Assembly: GCA_045133795.1 (NCBI GenBank)
Contig: JBGUUT010000126.1
Location: 7,943 to 71,942, forward strand
From: Spirochaetota bacterium
GTDB lineage: Bacteria; Spirochaetota; GWE2-31-10
Reading direction: 5' to 3'
DNA: 64,000 bases
Shown: one piece after another, positions 1-13,180 of the stretch
Layout of the letters: each line of letters starts with the position of its first letter
Position numbering within the stretch: position 1 is the first letter of the stretch
Program-made: the position numbers and the translations under genes
Notes under the pieces: model-generated
The model's input: the letters and a program-made list of their open reading frames with translations, nothing else
The model's database searches: none
Told to the model about the DNA's origin: nothing

Positions 1-874
1 TTCCGCCACCGGGACCGATGTCTCCGATTTTCAAAGTCTTTTTTAATTCTTCCATAATAGGTGTATAAAGAGCATCAACTATATCTTTTGTATAAGTTGG
101 TAACAAATCAAAGATATCGTCTATAGAGCCAAACTGTTTTTTTGAGGACGAGAGTACAACCGCAGTCTTCAAGTCAATGACTGTAGAAGAAAGGTACATT
201 CTGCTTCCTAGCTTGATTATTTGTCCTCTTGCTACCATTGTTGCGTTTATGGCATTACCTAAAGCGACTGTCTTTTCTTTATTCGACCAGTCGGATGCTT
301 GAAATTTCATTTCTTTGATTGTCTTATCAAAGTTCGCTCTGTCTACTACATTTACTTTGCCGGTAGAAACAAGTTCTGCAATAAACAGTTCTGTTATTGC
401 ATCTGCTTCTTCACTGTTTACTGCCCCTGCTGTTATATCAAACGTCGAAACTGCGACATAGGGAAGTTGCATTTCTTGAGTTCCTTTAACTTGCGTAATA
501 CTTGTACTGACTGTTTTAGGATGTCTTAATACTCCGTCTTTAGTTCCGAATGAGTTAAATACAAATTCCGGCATTTCAGGATCTTCAAAATACAGACCAT
601 CATTAGGATTATAAAACTTATAATATTCTATTGGTTTTTCCATTACAAAACGATATTCCCATTCACCTTGTGCATTTCTTACCATCGGTTTGCCCGGTTC
701 TTCCCAGTCATTTGTCATTGTTCCGATACAGTTCACGGCTGACATCTTGTTATTTTTATATGTGATGATACACGTCCATTTGCTGTCTTTTTCCTCATAT
801 CTGACTTTTGCATTTACAGCCATTACGGAAAATAACAACATTGTAACTACTAATAATTTGATTAGTTTTCTCAT
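1..874 (-). CDS. Secreted protein, partial (the 3' end runs off the window start). The C-terminal half has a CsgG/LpoB/TolB-N-like periplasmic fold signature.
   Basis: ATG at 874..872 preceded by AAAGGAGA. My hand translation of the minus strand gives MRKLIKLLVVTMLLFSVMAVNAKVRYEEKDSKW..., a Sec signal peptide ending in an AVNA|K cleavage site, and the frame stays open to position 1. The segment VSTFDITAGAVNSEEADAITELFIAELVSTGKVNVVDRANFDKTIKEM..LGNAINATMVARGQIIKLGSRMYLSSTVIDLKT resembles CsgG/LpoB-type domains. It is absent from the ORF track because it is truncated. Confidence 0.45.
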   Translation of the reverse strand, partial: MRKLIKLLVVTMLLFSVMAVNAKVRYEEKDSKWTCIITYKNNKMSAVNCIGTMTNDWEEPGKPMVRNAQGEWEYRFVMEKPIEYYKFYNPNDGLYFEDPEMPEFVFNSFGTKDGVLRHPKTVSTSITQVKGTQEMQLPYVAVSTFDITAGAVNSEEADAITELFIAELVSTGKVNVVDRANFDKTIKEMKFQASDWSNKEKTVALGNAINATMVARGQIIKLGSRMYLSSTVIDLKTAVVLSSSKKQFGSIDDIFDLLPTYTKDIVDALYTPIMEELKKTLKIGDIGPGGG

Positions 875-901
875 TTATTTGTCTCCTTTATTTTTTGATT
901 A

Positions 902-1957
902 TTATATATGGTCTATAGTAAGAACTGTTTTCGATTTTGGACTTCCCCAAATTCTTTCAAATTGAGTTATAAATTGATTCGATATTTCAGGATTTAATTC
1001 AGAATTTATATAAAATACAAATGAATTCCTTGTTACTTCCGTGGCTGTATACAATGCGATATACAAAATGTTGTCACAGCGGATATAGGAAAAATACGGA
1101 ATATCATCATAGTATTTTAAACAGAGAGAAGCTTCTTGTCTGTTCATGGCGTTTTTAAATTCAAGATTATTTGAAAATGTATCTTTTAGTTCTTGATATT
1201 TCTTTTTTGTTTCTGTTGCTTTATCAAAGAAATCTTTTGTATCACCATTTCTGATATACGAAAATCTAGCTTTAACTAAATTTGATTCCGGTGATAACGC
1301 CATTATTCTGATTCTGGCACTTTGTGTATTAAGTAAGTTATTTTTAAAAATATCTAATGCTTCGGTAGATGTTTCACCTGTCATGCTTAAAATATCAATC
1401 TCTGTTGCTCTAGAAAATGCTGTTTTAATTATATCTTGGACTTTTGGGTCTATTCGTCTTCCGAGAAGATGAAGTCCCTTTTTATCTTCTCTGTTAAAAG
1501 CTATATTTTCACAATATTTATTATGTTCATATATTCTAAAAATATGCTCAACACTTTGCCGTATCTCATTTTTTGTTAATTCTATATCTTTTGAAATAGG
1601 ATTCATATTTGGATATGGATATGCAATAACATTCATTGCTCCTATATCAAAAGGAATCGAATCCTTAGAATTACCTGCTCTCAAAATAATACAAGGTTTA
1701 CCAGTCATGTGGCGGATTCCTAATTCATAAAAAACATTAGGATTTAAATCTGTAATGTCACATACAACTAAATCGGCTTCTTTAAGATTATGTACTATAT
1801 CAGTTGTAATGATATTTCGAGGAATATCAATTGGTAATAAAATATTGAAGTCATCTCCCAGAGCAGGAGTAAGTATATTATCTTGAACATATCTAGAACG
1901 TTTTCGTTCGGGCGAATCCGCTTCTTTCAATGTACAAATAAAAAACGCTGTTTTCAT
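902..1957 (-). CDS. Protein with an N-terminal nucleoside 2-deoxyribosyltransferase-like (SLOG/Rossmannoid) domain and an uncharacterised roughly 220-aa C-terminal domain
   Basis: 351-aa ORF with RBS AAAGGAG. The N-terminus MKTAFFICTL...EADLVVCDITDLNPNVFYELGIRHMTGKPCIIL matches the NDT/SLOG pattern (buried beta-strand start, D-x-x-D, NPNV-x-YELG with the Glu, GKP). The C-terminal region matches nothing I recognise. Confidence 0.55.
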   Translation of the reverse strand: MKTAFFICTLKEADSPERKRSRYVQDNILTPALGDDFNILLPIDIPRNIITTDIVHNLKEADLVVCDITDLNPNVFYELGIRHMTGKPCIILRAGNSKDSIPFDIGAMNVIAYPYPNMNPISKDIELTKNEIRQSVEHIFRIYEHNKYCENIAFNREDKKGLHLLGRRIDPKVQDIIKTAFSRATEIDILSMTGETSTEALDIFKNNLLNTQSARIRIMALSPESNLVKARFSYIRNGDTKDFFDKATETKKKYQELKDTFSNNLEFKNAMNRQEASLCLKYYDDIPYFSYIRCDNILYIALYTATEVTRNSFVFYINSELNPEISNQFITQFERIWGSPKSKTVLTIDHI

Positions 1958-2126
1958 TCTTATTTCTCCTTTATGTTTTGATTATTTTTACTTTCCATTC
2001 CGGAAAGTTTTTTTCTTTTGACCGGGAGTTCGACTTAGCTTTTTGCCGTTTTTTCCTGATGGGAAAAACTTCGTTCGTTCGCAATGCGAACTCACCTTAG
2101 CTCACGTTCGTCACTCCACGAGAACA

Positions 2127-2227
2127 CCTCTCATAACTGCATGAGAAATGCTCTCATAGCATTATGAGAATCTCTCTCATGCCGTTATGAGAACGTCTTC
2201 ACTCGTACTATGAGAGCCCCTCTCATG
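2127..2227. repeat. Tandem array of four imperfect 20-25 bp palindromic units (CTCTCATA-N5-7-TATGAGA). It may be operator-like and lies in the 5' region of the 902..1957 gene.
   Basis: Read directly: cctctcataactgcatgagaa, gctctcatagcattatgagaa, tctctcatgccgttatgagaa, then the inverted-orientation unit tatgagagcccctctcatgc. Additional dyads lie just upstream: GTTCGCA|TGCGAAC at about 2078-2092 and GTTTTTCC-tgat-GGAAAAAC at about 2049-2070. Confidence 0.6.
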
Positions 2228-2228
2228 C

Positions 2229-2963
2229 TTAATCATCGATTGCGTTACAAGCGTAGTTGTAAGTAATCTCACGTATCGAAGCGAGATTTGCTCCGCCGCT
2301 GTAGTTCGTTTTGATTTTCACGGTTACGGCTCCGGCAGGTACTGTCGACGGTACACGTGCGATTATTTGGCTCGGTTTGTTTACTGTCAGTCGGCGTGTT
2401 ACTCTGTGTTCTGCTCCCGTAGAGTCCACGATAAAGATTCCTTGATTTTGGTCGGCTTCATCGGTGATTTTGATTTTTTCGCCGTCGATTACGATGTCGT
2501 CGCCGATTGTGATTGTGCCGTCTTTGAGTCCTGTGGCACCGTCAGTAATCGCCGTGATTCGTGCAGAGGCTGATGTAGCTCCCATTACTTTCACAGATAT
2601 TCCGTCAAGTGTGCTTCGTAAATCTGCTGTCGGTACAAGGTCTACCGTGCGTTTGTGAGTAGCTGGGTCGAAGCTCGCTGCTTCATTTTCCCAAACTCCG
2701 CTTACTCTCGGCGTGATTTGCACTAAGCCGTCACGGAAACTTGAGCATTCTTGGATAAATGCTTTTACTGCATTGTCACGCAGGTTAAGAATATTGAGGA
2801 TTGTGTCCTTGCGGTATTCGCTTCGTTCGCTGACGATTCTTTCCGCTACGTCTTCGTTTGTCAATGTAGCACCGTTAAGGTGAACATCGGCGATACAGTC
2901 TTTGTCATTGTCTTTTGTGAGTGCGTTCGGTCGTAAGTAGACCTGCCATTGGTTGTTTGCCAT
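2229..2963 (-). CDS. Bacteroidetes-type HU-family DNA-binding protein (HU-HIG N-terminal domain plus DUF4469/Ig-like C-terminal domain)
   Basis: 244-aa ORF with RBS AAAGGAG. The N-terminus MANNQWQVYLRPNALTKDNDKDCIADVHLNGATLTNEDVAERIV follows the HU-HIG pattern (basic start, N-x-LT-x-D, Y/C-x-A-x-V) and FDPATHKRTVDLVPTADLR follows the DUF4469-like pattern. Local GC is clearly higher (about 48%) than the flanks (about 33%). Confidence 0.55.
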   Translation of the reverse strand: MANNQWQVYLRPNALTKDNDKDCIADVHLNGATLTNEDVAERIVSERSEYRKDTILNILNLRDNAVKAFIQECSSFRDGLVQITPRVSGVWENEAASFDPATHKRTVDLVPTADLRSTLDGISVKVMGATSASARITAITDGATGLKDGTITIGDDIVIDGEKIKITDEADQNQGIFIVDSTGAEHRVTRRLTVNKPSQIIARVPSTVPAGAVTVKIKTNYSGGANLASIREITYNYACNAIDD

Positions 2964-3031
2964 AGTAAATACTCCTTTGATTTCTTCTTTCCTTATGTGT
3001 AGTAAAGGCTGGAAGAAAGCAAAGAGAATGT

Positions 3032-3047
3032 AAAAAAAAAAAAAAAA
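3032..3047. repeat. A16 homopolymeric tract (T16 on the minus strand), 69-84 bp upstream of the 2229..2963 gene start
   Basis: 16 consecutive A residues counted in the sequence. Confidence 0.9.
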
Positions 3048-3226
3048 CTGTCAAATTTATTGATAATATATAGGAGTAAAAACATTTTTTTGGGCGTGCA
3101 GTTGGCTTCTTTTCTCCTCTTTGGCTGCCGGCACGCTCTTTTTAGGAAAACGGAAAGGTGAAAGAGGGAAGATGAGAAATGAGAATGAACTCACCGAGAG
3201 GAGCGTCCTTTTCTCTTGGGAGTTAT

Positions 3227-3268
3227 AGAGGGTATTCTCTTTTCATCGCAAAAAAGAGAATACCCTCT
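3227..3268. repeat. Perfect 17-bp-stem hairpin (AGAGGGTATTCTCTTTT / AAAAGAGAATACCCTCT), not followed by a T-run
   Basis: The inverted repeat is read directly and is not a canonical terminator on either strand. Confidence 0.7.
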
Positions 3269-3276
3269 AACTTCTA

Positions 3277-3470
3277 CCAACTTTGAACCAAAGTTGCATT
3301 TTAACGCCGGCTATGCCGGCAAAAAGAGCCTTAAACCTAAGTTGGTTTATAAAACTTTAAACCAAAGTTGCATTTTAACGCCGGCTATGCCGGCAAATAA
3401 AGCTCCAAACCTTGCAAAGTTTTAGAAAAGTTTTGTCCCCAAAACGACCATAACTCGCCGGCTATGCCGG
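3277..3470. repeat. Mosaic direct repeats (about 45-bp unit, present 2.5 times). Each unit carries an AT-rich hairpin (CAACTTTG..CAAAGTTG) and a GC hairpin (GCCGGC-TAT-GCCGGC).
   Basis: aaccaaagttgcattttaacgccggctatgccggcaaa occurs at about 3288 and again at about 3358. cgccggctatgccggcaaaag occurs a third time at about 3447, and the aactttaaacc modules are also repeated. Confidence 0.7.
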
Positions 3471-3518
3471 CAAAAGGAACTTTAAACCCACGTGGTTTGA
3501 AAAGCTTTGAAGAAAGCT

Positions 3519-10674: not shown

Positions 10675-11829
10675 ATGGAACCATTGGGCTTATATTTAAA
10701 ACAGGTCAGAGAAGGGAAAAAGCTGACTATCGATAAAGTAATTGAAGATACTTTCATTATGAAAAAATTTATTATTGCAATAGAAGACGATGATTTTTCT
10801 TCTTTTCCGGGAGAAGCTTATCTAAAAGGTTTCTTGCGAAATTACGGAGAATATTTAGGGCTTGATCCGTCTGATTTAATTTCACGTTATGAAAGAATAA
10901 AAATGTCAGAAATGCCGTCACCTACAGAGCTTTTGATTCCTAAACCAAAAGCATTTTTCTCAAAAATGTTGCTGATTGTTTTAATTGTAATGCTTTTGGT
11001 TGCTGTAGTTGTCGGTATTGGTGCTATTGCCGTGGCTATGCGTTCGACAGTTGCAAATACAGCCGTAAAGACAAAAGAAGAAGTTAAAACAGAAAAAGAA
11101 AAGGCTCGTTCTGAAAAGAAAAAGAATCTTTTGGTAAAGGAAAAAAAGAAAGCTCAGGTAGAAACAACTGAAGACAGTAAGTCTAAAGTTTTTACATTTG
11201 AAGCTGAAGCTGATAATTTTACAGTTAAAAAAGATGAGAAAATAAGCTTTAAATTGGATGATGAAAAAACATATTCTATTTGGGTGTCAGAATTAGAGCC
11301 GACTGTTATATTGAAAAGTTCGGCAGACAGACAGCAATTTCTTATAGCGAACGGTTTTACAAATAAGTTTGATGTAAACGGCGACGGAAAAGAAGATTTG
11401 GAAATTGTGTTAAGTTTCTGGACAGATAAAAATGCTACTATCGGTTTAAAAAGAATTGCTAATTCTCTTTGGAGTGACAGCAGTATTGACAGTGAATTCT
11501 TTTTACCGGATACAATCGAGGTTATCGGTGAAAAAGCAAGCAAGTCAGAAATTTCACTAATGATTTCATTTTCTGAAATGGCATATTTGAAATATCAAAT
11601 AGATAAAAATCCGGAAGTAGAAAAGACTTATAAGGTTGGTGCTGTTTTAGAATTAAAGGCAAATGAACGTGTTCTTTTGTGGATGTCGGATGCCGGAGCC
11701 GTAAATGCTGATTTTTCAGAGTATAACAAACGAGTTGTTCTCGGAGAAAAAGGTAAAGTTGACGTGAAGATTATCGGTTGGACTAAAAACAATGGTAATT
11801 ACTCATTACAAATGAGTTCATTGAATTAA
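10675..11829 (+). CDS. RodZ-like protein (N-terminal XRE-type HTH, one TM helix, C-terminal DUF4115-like domain)
   Basis: LYLKQVREGKKLTIDKVIEDTFIMKKFIIAIEDDDFSSFPGEAYLKGFLRNYGEYLGLD matches the RodZ N-terminus, followed by a TM helix and a Lys/Glu-rich linker. Confidence 0.55.
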   Translation: MEPLGLYLKQVREGKKLTIDKVIEDTFIMKKFIIAIEDDDFSSFPGEAYLKGFLRNYGEYLGLDPSDLISRYERIKMSEMPSPTELLIPKPKAFFSKMLLIVLIVMLLVAVVVGIGAIAVAMRSTVANTAVKTKEEVKTEKEKARSEKKKNLLVKEKKKAQVETTEDSKSKVFTFEAEADNFTVKKDEKISFKLDDEKTYSIWVSELEPTVILKSSADRQQFLIANGFTNKFDVNGDGKEDLEIVLSFWTDKNATIGLKRIANSLWSDSSIDSEFFLPDTIEVIGEKASKSEISLMISFSEMAYLKYQIDKNPEVEKTYKVGAVLELKANERVLLWMSDAGAVNADFSEYNKRVVLGEKGKVDVKIIGWTKNNGNYSLQMSSLN

Positions 11830-11833
11830 TGGT

Positions 11834-13180
11834 ATGAAAGAAAAAACAGTTTATATTGAATCTTTAGGTTGTGCAAAAAATCAAGTCGATTCCGAAAAAA
11901 TGGCTGCTCTTTTAGAGCAGCACGGTTGGAATTTAGTTGATAATTCCGAAGAAGCTGTTTGTATTATTATAAATACTTGCGGTTTTATAGAAAGTGCAAA
12001 GAAAGAAGCAATTGATGTTCTTTGTGATGCGATAAAACAAAAACAATGCGGTAAATGTCGTATCGTTGTGGCAGCAGGATGTTTTGCTCAACGATACCAT
12101 GACGCGTTAAAAGAAGAATTTGGTGATGATGAAATAGATGTAATTTTCGGAATCGGAGATATTTCGAAAATTGCAGATATTGTGGAAGACACTTTTTTAA
12201 ATAAACAACCGTCAAAGCGTGTTGAGATTCCGCAAATGGCGGATGATAATCTGTTGGATCGTAAAGTTTCCGGTTTTCCGGGGTCTGCGTACTTACGAAT
12301 CAGTGACGGTTGTTCTAATCATTGTACATATTGTGCTATTCCGTTAATCAGAGGGGAGCTTCATTCCAGAAAGATGGAAGTAATTCTAAAAGAGTTGGAA
12401 TTATTATTACCCGGAACATTAAAGGAATTGAATGTAATCAGTCAAGATACAACAAATTACGGAAAGGATATTTATGGTGAAAGTAAGCTTGCAGATTTAC
12501 TGGAAGCTATTGATGATAAACTTTCTGATGGTATCAGAATGCGTTTGTTGTATATGCATCCTGATCATATTACGGACGATTTGCTTGACAGAATGACCAA
12601 ACTTCGTCATTTCGTACCTTATTTTGATTTGCCGTTTCAATCCGCAAGCAAAAATATTTTACAGAAGATGGGGCGTAAAGGAGATTCACAAACTTATCTT
12701 AGTTTACTTGAACGTATTCGACAGCGTTTTCCGGATGCAGTAATTCGTTCTACATTTATAGTCGGATTTCCGGGAGAAACAGCAGAAGATGCCGAAGAAT
12801 CTTTGGAATTTATAAAACGTGCCGGAATGGAATGGGTTGGGGCGTTTGCTTATTCTCCGGAAGAAGATACGCCGGCTTATGATTTGCCGAACAGAGTAAA
12901 AAAGAATGTAGCTAAAAAACGACTTGATAAATTAATGGAAGTTTCGGAAGAAATTGCATTACCGAGACTTGAAAGATTTGTCGGAGAAAGAGTTGAGGTT
13001 TTGATTGAAGAACGCATTGATGAAGAACTTTGTATCGGGCGTTTTTGGGGACAAGCTCCGGATGTTGACGGATTGACAGTTGTTGAAAGTGCTAATGCAG
13101 TTCCCGGAGAAATGATAGATGTCGAAATCCTAAGATTGAACGGAAAAGATTTCTACGGGATACAATCTGTAAATAATTAG
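11834..13180 (+). CDS. rimO: Ribosomal protein S12 methylthiotransferase RimO (radical SAM, MiaB family)
   Basis: N-terminal LGCAKNQVDSE, the radical SAM motif CSNHCTYCAIP and a C-terminal TRAM domain. Confidence 0.8.
   Translation: MKEKTVYIESLGCAKNQVDSEKMAALLEQHGWNLVDNSEEAVCIIINTCGFIESAKKEAIDVLCDAIKQKQCGKCRIVVAAGCFAQRYHDALKEEFGDDEIDVIFGIGDISKIADIVEDTFLNKQPSKRVEIPQMADDNLLDRKVSGFPGSAYLRISDGCSNHCTYCAIPLIRGELHSRKMEVILKELELLLPGTLKELNVISQDTTNYGKDIYGESKLADLLEAIDDKLSDGIRMRLLYMHPDHITDDLLDRMTKLRHFVPYFDLPFQSASKNILQKMGRKGDSQTYLSLLERIRQRFPDAVIRSTFIVGFPGETAEDAEESLEFIKRAGMEWVGAFAYSPEEDTPAYDLPNRVKKNVAKKRLDKLMEVSEEIALPRLERFVGERVEVLIEERIDEELCIGRFWGQAPDVDGLTVVESANAVPGEMIDVEILRLNGKDFYGIQSVNN

Follow-up and report, generated by a model that had tools for sequence, protein, structure and literature searches.

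A GC-rich HU-HIG/DUF4469 gene in AT-rich spirochaete DNA: a composition shared by the family and probably kept by selection, rather than a sign of recent transfer

When a gene is far richer in guanine plus cytosine (GC) than the DNA around it, has it necessarily arrived from elsewhere? The question is raised by a single open reading frame (ORF) in a 64-kb stretch of DNA from a Spirochaetota bacterium (assembly GCA_045133795.1, contig JBGUUT010000126.1), the whole of which is called the window below. The ORF, at 2229..2963 on the minus strand, starts with ATG and encodes a protein of 244 amino acids; its translation agrees with the strings quoted in an earlier note on this DNA, which had proposed a Bacteroidetes-type HU-HIG/DUF4469 protein and had taken the GC content and the taxonomic affinity as pointing to horizontal acquisition. 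Our analysis supports the identification of the protein, but recent horizontal acquisition is not supported. Instead, the gene is probably a long-resident, vertically maintained member of a multi-copy spirochaete HU-HIG/DUF4469 expansion, with a composition kept by selection and a place in a switchable cassette. An old transfer from Bacteroidales to spirochaetes is plausible, as was already stated by Burroughs et al., who described the HU-HIG clade as 'occasionally transferred to the spirochaetes' (Burroughs et al., 2017; PMC5499826).

The compositional anomaly itself is real. The ORF has a GC content of 47.6% against 34.4% for the whole 64-kb window, close to the 48% and 33% estimated previously. 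Compared with all windows of 735 nt, this corresponds to a z-score of 4.4, and the 0.3% of windows that are as high all overlap the ORF locus; the interval 1841-3235 is the sole stretch in the 64 kb in which the 735-nt GC content reaches 0.44. The GC content at third codon positions (GC3) is 0.46 versus 0.26 +/- 0.04 (z = 5.2), the most extreme value among 39 long ORFs. The kind of composition check proposed in the earlier note thus singles out this region. The change in composition had been described as abrupt at both ends. This holds at the 5' end, where GC drops sharply to 27% in the promoter and 5' untranslated region (UTR; 2964-3058), but not at the 3' end, where the GC-rich block extends about 230 nt beyond the stop codon into structured non-coding DNA (41.7% GC for 1958-2228, and 45.5% for a hairpin array at 2117-2228). 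The upstream intergenic region (3059-3518) is also elevated, at 41.3% GC, because of the GC-rich hairpin repeats that it contains.

The same excess is observed across the family. Among the related loci compared with the window (labelled L001, L005 and so on), the gene is GC-richer than its flanks at 31 of 31 spirochaete loci, by 8 points on average, and at 22 of 23 Bacteroidales loci, by 7 points on average; homologues in hosts of low GC content (33-36%) have a gene GC of 45-48%. Since this composition is family-wide and kept by selection in every host, the GC anomaly is no evidence of recent transfer. Furthermore, the gene is present at an orthologous locus in a diverged relative, a Spirochaetota metagenome-assembled genome (MAG; L005, the one locus on which this comparison rests), with 86% DNA identity in the cassette that carries the gene and 89% in the left flank (window 1-894). 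The earlier note had suggested looking for the presence or absence of the segment 875-3520 in related strains: L005 has the cassette at the same locus, and only the interval 895-2140 differs, with an ORF resembling Toll/interleukin-1 receptor (TIR) proteins (29.9% GC) in the window and an unrelated membrane-protein ORF (24% GC) in L005. As this interval has been swapped while the cassette was kept, the variable insert is the low-GC neighbour and not the GC-rich gene. In the window, we saw neither a tRNA gene nor a recognised integrase beside the gene, and found neither a transposase nor terminal repeats bounding the cassette.

If the protein is recoded with the codon usage of the window, the GC content of its gene becomes 39.7%, whereas the gene as it stands has 47.8% and an average gene 34.7%. 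About 5 of the 13 excess points therefore derive from the amino-acid composition (rich in G, A, D, T, V and R) and about 8 from synonymous choice. Codons of the NNY type end in C in 72% of cases against a background of 26%, and isoleucine is encoded by ATC in 74% against 17%. At four-fold sites, T accounts for 14% (38% in the background) and A for 50%. The codons for Lys, Glu and Gln are A-ending in 86-92% of cases, above background, with a G-ending fraction of 0.10 versus 0.18. The synonymous bias is an avoidance of U at third codon positions, and not a general rise in GC. This preference for C in NNY codons exceeds that of the flanks at 23 of 23 spirochaete and 11 of 12 Bacteroidales loci. 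Within the subclade of low-GC hosts, GC3 is constant (0.44-0.47) at a synonymous divergence (dS) of 0.26-0.60, with a ratio of non-synonymous to synonymous divergence (dN/dS) of 0.07-0.09; the stability of GC3 at such large dS under low dN/dS indicates that selection holds the composition in place. Expression-linked selection is the leading candidate for the cause of the U-avoidance, but is not established. GroEL (from L001) and the ribosomal proteins L13/S9 (from the window), which would be expected to be highly expressed in this lineage, exhibit a milder shift towards C-ending codons (0.41-0.47). We have dropped a simple 'optimal codon' explanation, as no significant correlation with these genes could be found, and keep the weaker statement that the U-avoidance is maintained by selection. 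Such a family-wide, selection-maintained bias may be new. The locus thus provides a case of strong local GC anomaly without recent transfer, in which the anomaly tracks a gene family across two phyla and across hosts of 33-57% GC, and composition-based island finders would wrongly flag every copy of the HU-HIG/DUF4469 family.

The assignment of the protein to this family in the earlier note is confirmed by several searches. In Pfam, the HU-like domain PF14848 (HU-DNA_bdg) matches residues 6-128 (nt 2580-2948, minus strand) with 91.2 bits for a gathering cut-off of 30, and the immunoglobulin (Ig)-like domain PF14734 (DUF4469) matches residues 136-232 (nt 2268-2558, minus strand) with 84.9 bits for a cut-off of 22.6. 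The only solved relative, PDB entry 4FMR (BVU_2165 of Bacteroides vulgatus), matches the protein from end to end by sequence (phmmer, E = 3.5e-11) and in a profile search (E = 2.4e-17, positions 5-230 against 3-227). An AlphaFold2 (AF2) monomer model, built on an alignment of the Treponema sequences and their Bacteroidales sister subclade, has a mean predicted local distance difference test score (pLDDT) of 85.6 and a predicted template modelling score of 0.48; an alignment of Treponema sequences only gave a pLDDT of 52. With Foldseek, the model matches 4FMR over about 245 columns (E = 7.6e-19, probability 1.00). Strands 5-12 and 23-27 precede helices 36-45 and 52-71, followed by two arms (81-88 and 104-111), a helix (113-120) and a strand (123-129). 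The N-terminal domain matches chains of IHF, Hbb and HU with template modelling (TM) scores of 0.64-0.69 relative to the target, and the C-terminal half matches Ig-like sandwiches, in line with the DUF4469 Ig-like extension proposed earlier. The name HU-HIG was given to the clade by Burroughs et al., who took 4FMR to represent its Ig-fused subclade as a prototype (Burroughs et al., 2017; PMC5499826).

The relatives of this protein place it among the spirochaetes. Top hits had been expected in Bacteroidetes; in fact, the best homologues are spirochaete proteins, 59-97% identical, whose genes have 45-48% GC in hosts of 33-36%, an outcome which the earlier note itself had named as speaking against its conclusion. 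All the named proteins among the best 120 database matches (59-97% identical, with the same architecture) belong to Treponema or Spirochaetales, and the closest spirochaete relatives are 88-97% identical to the window protein. Exact-sequence look-ups of the HU-HIG protein, of a rhodanese encoded in its neighbourhood and of the T. denticola homologue returned no match. A scan restricted to one genome for each species gave spirochaete loci with 47-93% identity, in several copies per genome, with at least four copies in Treponema sp. HNW and at least six in OMZ 840. Some copies stand alone on contigs of about 1 kb, as expected of collapsed repeats. Bacteroidales loci in the same scan are 26-35% identical, and the nearest Bacteroidales protein in any search, from P. 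distasonis, is 45% identical; it is a member of a large conserved subclade with 37-45% identity to the window protein. An exhaustive search of representatives returned 982 clusters when the threshold was E <= 1e-3 and 35 when it was E <= 1e-30, with identities declining smoothly from about 60% to 45% and then to about 30%. In a neighbour-joining tree, all spirochaete sequences group in a single clade, with the L077-type protein of P. distasonis (44-45% identity) as sister, and this clade nests within a Bacteroidales radiation of much greater diversity; the copy of the window falls in the subclade of low-GC hosts. The mean column identity of the spirochaete clade is 81%, for a dN/dS of 0.07-0.09. 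The Bacteroidetes affinity previously proposed therefore stands in part: the family is centred on Bacteroidales and an old transfer is plausible, but the best matches are from spirochaetes and not from Bacteroidetes.

One Bacteroidales-type copy was encountered in an unexpected place, a contig labelled uncultured Oscillibacter (L039; CAAGJQ010000156.1). The protein is 33% identical to that of the window and groups with the Parabacteroides copies in the tree, whereas the contig, of 3.6 kb and with flanks of 63% GC, is part of a MAG of a Firmicutes genus; either a binning error or a further transfer could account for it. As to vehicles, we rejected phages, since no relatives were found in IMG/VR and only one unverified 'Bacteriophage sp.' record, at 35% identity, came up. 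The plasmid matches are large non-mobilizable Parabacteroides replicons, which are uninformative on mobility.

The gene is embedded in a compact cassette. Where near-identical proteins are encoded in a different neighbourhood, the homology of their DNA to that of the window (89-90% identity) is confined to the stretch between 3058 and 2120, which gives a cassette of about 940 bp. All its elements lie on the minus strand. It opens with a predicted promoter found by consensus scan: a -35 hexamer, TTGACA, at 3049..3054, which 15 related copies share unchanged, is separated by 16 nt from a -10 hexamer, TACATT, at 3027..3032, and the two agree with the sigma-70-type consensus at 10 of 12 positions. 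The 5' UTR (2964..3020) contains a Shine-Dalgarno sequence, AAAGGAG, read at 2972-2978, 8 nt ahead of the ATG, and an imperfect hairpin (inverted repeat I6, arms 3005-3024 and 2975-2994) whose predicted fold is weak (-11.2 kcal/mol, z = -1.6) and which is not established. Downstream of the stop codon, the 3' UTR hairpin array (2117..2228; repeat family D3, inverted repeats I1, I3, I10 and I14) consists of five hairpins of the type ATGAGAG-N4-CTCTCAT with a period of 23 nt, or alternatively of one long nested stem. Its minimum free energy is -54.6 kcal/mol (z = -6.5), and none of 200 shuffled sequences is as stable. The array is kept in L001, L002, L003 and L005, and both its hairpin motif and the HU-HIG gene are found nowhere else in the window. 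The remaining intergenic DNA before the next ORF (1958..2116) has 39% GC and is moderately structured (z = -2.4). Rfam searches with the UTR elements gave only sub-threshold matches to miRNA-like hairpins and one chance CRISPR-DR match inside the neighbouring ORF; these elements fall into no RNA family described so far. Strong 3' structure is a feature of the family. In 27 spirochaete copies the z-score has a median of -4.8, compared with -1.4 at the ends of 143 other genes of these loci (p = 1.6e-8), and the structure persists where the 3' sequences of family members differ. Together, a near-consensus promoter, a strong ribosome-binding site, the ORF and the stable 3' array would be expected to yield an abundant and stable mRNA. 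The combination of a T-tract promoter spacer with a 3' hairpin array may also be new.

We noticed, in addition, that the syntenic loci L004 and L006 have flanking genes 94-97% identical while the HU-HIG gene region is only 90% identical. This suggests either that the cassette is exchanged with paralogues or that it evolves faster than its surroundings.

Homopolymer phase variation is familiar from the poly-A tract in the promoter spacer of Mycoplasma vlp genes and from the poly-G/C tracts of Neisseria porA, opc and fetA. The promoter of the cassette has a comparable anatomy, as its spacer is made of a G followed by T16 (TTGACA-G-T16-ACATT). The tract (3032..3047, A16 on the plus strand), the last T of which is the first T of the -10 hexamer, is a candidate slipped-strand switch. 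It is the only homopolymer of at least 10 nt in the 64-kb window, where about 0.0016 runs of 16 or more would be expected by chance. Across 15 copies with identical flanking hexamers, its length is T16 in nine, T17 in two, and T15, T13, T12 and T19 in one each, and one further copy has at least 17 T before the contig ends. Where one locus was seen in two samples, the tract differed in two of four pairs (13 vs 12 in L001/L002, 17 vs 19 in L067/L068). In L001 and L002, the ORFs are intact and 97% identical. In L067, the spacer G has been lost but a T17 tract restores the 16-nt spacer. More distant Treponema copies lack the T tract; in the metagenomes of the JGI, the strict promoter pattern had no match and a relaxed pattern matched three loci only. 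As the spacer is almost wholly made of T16, length changes would alter the spacing of the promoter. Slippage between 12 and 19 T would shift the spacer in and out of the functional range of 16-18 nt, and expression would be stochastically switchable or tunable. We infer phase variation of the promoter from its anatomy and from the polymorphism between assemblies.

The same module is present elsewhere. At L063 (about 3486-3517, minus strand), TTGACA-G-T16-ACATTC, with a similar upstream sequence, lies ahead of a gene for a BspA-type leucine-rich repeat lipoprotein and not of an HU-HIG gene. The switchable promoter may thus be a portable module.

How do other explanations of the composition fare against that of a long-resident gene under selection? 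A recent acquisition from a Bacteroidetes donor, whose higher GC content would not yet have been ameliorated, would agree with the centring of the family on Bacteroidales, where this domain architecture is typical, and with the gene being the strongest compositional outlier of the window. Yet identity to Bacteroidales proteins does not rise above 45%, against 88-97% for the closest spirochaete relatives, the gene already occupies the orthologous locus in L005, and inside the low-GC-host clade dS rises to 0.6 with GC3 unchanged. Moreover, the usage of Lys, Glu and Gln codons is fully that of the host, with A in the last position, and would not result from the signature of a Bacteroidales donor; Bacteroidales themselves show the same GC excess over flanks, and no tRNA gene or recognised integrase adjoins the gene. 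We consider such a recent arrival extremely improbable. It is also unlikely, although for partly different reasons, that the cassette came recently from a GC-richer Treponema (about 45-50% GC) and inherited its composition. The cassette of about 940 bp does occur in different neighbourhoods of closely related genomes, the copies of GC-richer Treponema have 52-54% GC and those of low-GC hosts (45-48%) lie between these and their hosts, and the contrast between gene region and flanks at L004/L006 suggests recombination. Nevertheless, the copies of low-GC hosts form a subclade of their own with deep synonymous divergence and stable GC3, their third positions avoid U without being generally shifted to GC (for Lys, Glu and Gln, G-ending codons are rarer than in the background of the host), and the window contains no transposase or terminal repeats around the cassette.

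GC-biased gene conversion among dispersed paralogues, which could lift the GC content of silent sites, would be favoured by the multi-copy nature of the family, by its paralogues of about 90% identity and by the hint of non-vertical exchange at L004/L006. Such conversion should lift G- and C-ending codons alike, whereas the G-ending fraction of Lys, Glu and Gln codons in the low-GC clade is 0.09-0.13 against a background of 0.15-0.19; four-fold sites move mainly from T to A, and the window has only one copy of the gene. It is therefore very unlikely to be the cause. Since a foreign donor or biased conversion would both raise G-ending codons, which is not seen, neither of them fits the codon pattern. 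Several observations tell against the long-resident, selected and switchable cassette that we prefer, or limit it. GroEL and L13/S9 favour U-ending four-fold codons (0.46-0.50), which the HU-HIG gene avoids, and the correlation between its codon-usage shift and theirs is non-significant (r = 0.08-0.20). The copies used in the family-wide tests include paralogues as well as orthologues, and are thus non-independent data points; the neighbour-joining tree was midpoint-rooted, has no support values and reflects a sampling skewed by the search patterns, so that it is indicative only. The tract lengths derive from short-read metagenome assemblies, which are error-prone at long homopolymers, and T16 in 9 of 15 copies also shows that a fixed length is favoured. 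Finally, no hairpin followed by a U tract, as in a canonical terminator, was found on the minus strand after the gene, and the 3' array may be a stabiliser, an attenuator or a protein-binding site.

What could the protein do? We found no paper mentioning DUF4469 in a literature search. Its database name, 'DNA-binding domain-containing protein', implies a conventional HU/IHF-type nucleoid protein that bends DNA, as would its N-terminal HU/IHF fold (TM 0.64-0.69), and strong expression signals would suit a protein of this kind. Nonetheless, we regard this as improbable. The isoelectric point (pI) is 5.18 for the whole protein and 5.11 for the HU domain, with a net charge of -1 in the arm region, whereas that of E. 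coli HU-alpha is 9.57; the window protein does have a proline at the arm tip (P101, in FDPATH), but the family does not conserve it and mostly reads YDEKVH there; and Burroughs et al. argue that the Ig domain of 4FMR occupies the DNA cleft (Burroughs et al., 2017; PMC5499826). Taken together, the acidity, the non-conserved proline and the published reading of 4FMR make an HU-like wrapping of duplex DNA unlikely. The product would rather be an abundant, cytoplasmic, acidic protein that combines an HU fold with an Ig-like domain at its C-terminus and that is, by homology to 4FMR, a dimer; it would most likely bind a protein or RNA ligand, and its level would be set stochastically by the T tract.

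For a cellular role, the best available guess is the published proposal that HU-HIG proteins are involved in conflicts with invasive elements (Burroughs et al., 2017; PMC5499826); like the high expression and the ligand, it is inferred. Such a role is compatible, in a weak and circumstantial way, with the expansion of the family into several copies, with a promoter that would be switchable, with a low-GC slot of variable content downstream and with the presence of toxin-antitoxin and PD-(D/E)XK genes near other copies. A bolder suggestion, which we regard as unlikely, is that the cassette could be a new type of contingency locus in gut spirochaetes, in which the T-tract promoter would stochastically switch very high expression of a non-DNA-binding HU-fold/Ig protein acting with the variable downstream gene. 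If this were true, the HU-HIG protein might take part in conflicts with invasive elements, as a sensor or an adaptor, or be a cis-linked factor for the expression of downstream cargo. In any case, the conserved clade, expression signals, hypermutable spacer, stable 3' structures and acidic surface now offer experimental handles on this family in cultivable Treponema.

Directly downstream of the cassette, an ORF of 351 amino acids (902-1957, minus strand, 29.9% GC) matches phrog_3634 over its N-terminal ~165 residues (E = 1.6e-27), with weak matches to the TIR effector model of PADLOC (E = 8e-7) and to nucleoside 2-deoxyribosyltransferase. Its position looks like a strain-variable cargo slot, here possibly occupied by a defence gene, and in the absence of a canonical terminator, read-through from the HU-HIG gene into this TIR-like ORF would be possible. 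The fixed left border of the slot is a minus-strand ORF that extends from about 875 to 1 and off the start of the window; it encodes a secreted protein (MRKLIKLLVVTMLLFSVMAVNA...) and is 89% identical at the DNA level in L005. The downstream gene varies between copies, being TIR-like here, a membrane protein in L005 and a surface lipoprotein at many other copies. A lipoprotein or secreted protein is often encoded next (L001, L004, L006, L008, L012, L013, L018, L026, L029, L067 and L069), and several of these proteins share the N-terminus KGAAALITAALLALLFTAC, which suggests a duplicated two-gene unit. By a crude lipobox pattern and at non-independent loci, lipoprotein-like N-termini are present in 9 of 25 downstream same-strand genes as compared with 12 of 195 other ORFs (p = 9e-5). 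We rejected the idea of a single conserved operon partner, since the downstream genes are heterogeneous in both phyla and only a loose enrichment in lipoprotein or surface genes is seen; the absence of conserved operons in the HU-HIG clade has been stated before (Burroughs et al., 2017; PMC5499826).

Upstream of the cassette, three copies of a repeat of 60-75 nt, each with a GCCGGCTATGCCGGC hairpin, lie at 3279-3489, next to a perfect 18-bp hairpin at 3226-3269. In the window these repeats occur only there (3226-3489), and related copies are intergenic in L001, L002, L004, L062, L065 and L066. They are a lineage-specific element, similar to repetitive extragenic palindromes (REP) or miniature inverted-repeat transposable elements (MITE), which tends to lie near HU-HIG copies. 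We also noticed that a protein with AAA-ATPase_like and PDDEXK_9 domains is encoded no more than about 4-6 kb away from HU-HIG/DUF4469 genes, in Treponema as well as in Bacteroidales contexts (L069, 1415-2998; L079-L088, about 11400-13000; L077, 1273-2952; and the downstream ORF of L078). This proximity may reflect co-expansion with HU-HIG genes, or may be due to chance given the abundance of such genes.

Comparison with known systems helps to situate the locus. The promoter resembles those of the tpr type in T. pallidum, where slipped-strand switching at poly-G promoter tracts has been demonstrated for tprE/G/J, tp0126 and tprL (PMC7864442). In both cases, the -35 and -10 hexamers enclose or adjoin a long homopolymer, whose length varies among close relatives. 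The tract differs from that of T. pallidum in being poly-T and in forming nearly the entire spacer; the product here lacks a signal peptide and is not a surface antigen, and the present locus is known from sequence alone. With classical HU/IHF proteins, the window protein has in common the N-terminal core fold, but it is acidic instead of basic, about 2.7 times longer, and extended by a hairpin at the N-terminus and an Ig domain at the C-terminus; the proline at the tip of its arm is not conserved. The two-domain architecture is that of 4FMR (BVU_2165) over the full length, with the same N-terminal beta-hairpin ahead of the HU helices, at about 21-25% identity. The modelled orientation of the two domains differs from that of 4FMR (root-mean-square deviation of about 10 A), which may reflect only the monomer prediction, the placement of the domains being uncertain.

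Within the family, Bacteroidetes HU-HIG expansions were described as rapidly diverging (Burroughs et al., 2017; PMC5499826), whereas the spirochaete clade is tightly conserved (81% column identity, dN/dS about 0.08). The nearest non-spirochaete relatives, the Parabacteroides-type subclade (WP_048927267.1; P. distasonis NZ_OY725834.1), align over the full length at 37-45% identity, and are likewise well conserved (56-94%) and GC-richer than their flanks; their genes sit co-directionally in or between SusC/SusD loci or ahead of fimbrillin genes. The DUF4469 paralogues of Treponema sp. HNW, OMZ 840 and T. denticola (59-68% identity), whose hosts are GC-richer (44-49%), are multi-copy and GC-richer than their flanks. 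Upstream, they have other elements in place of the TTGACA-T16-TACATT promoter; their 3' UTRs are strongly structured, as in the window.

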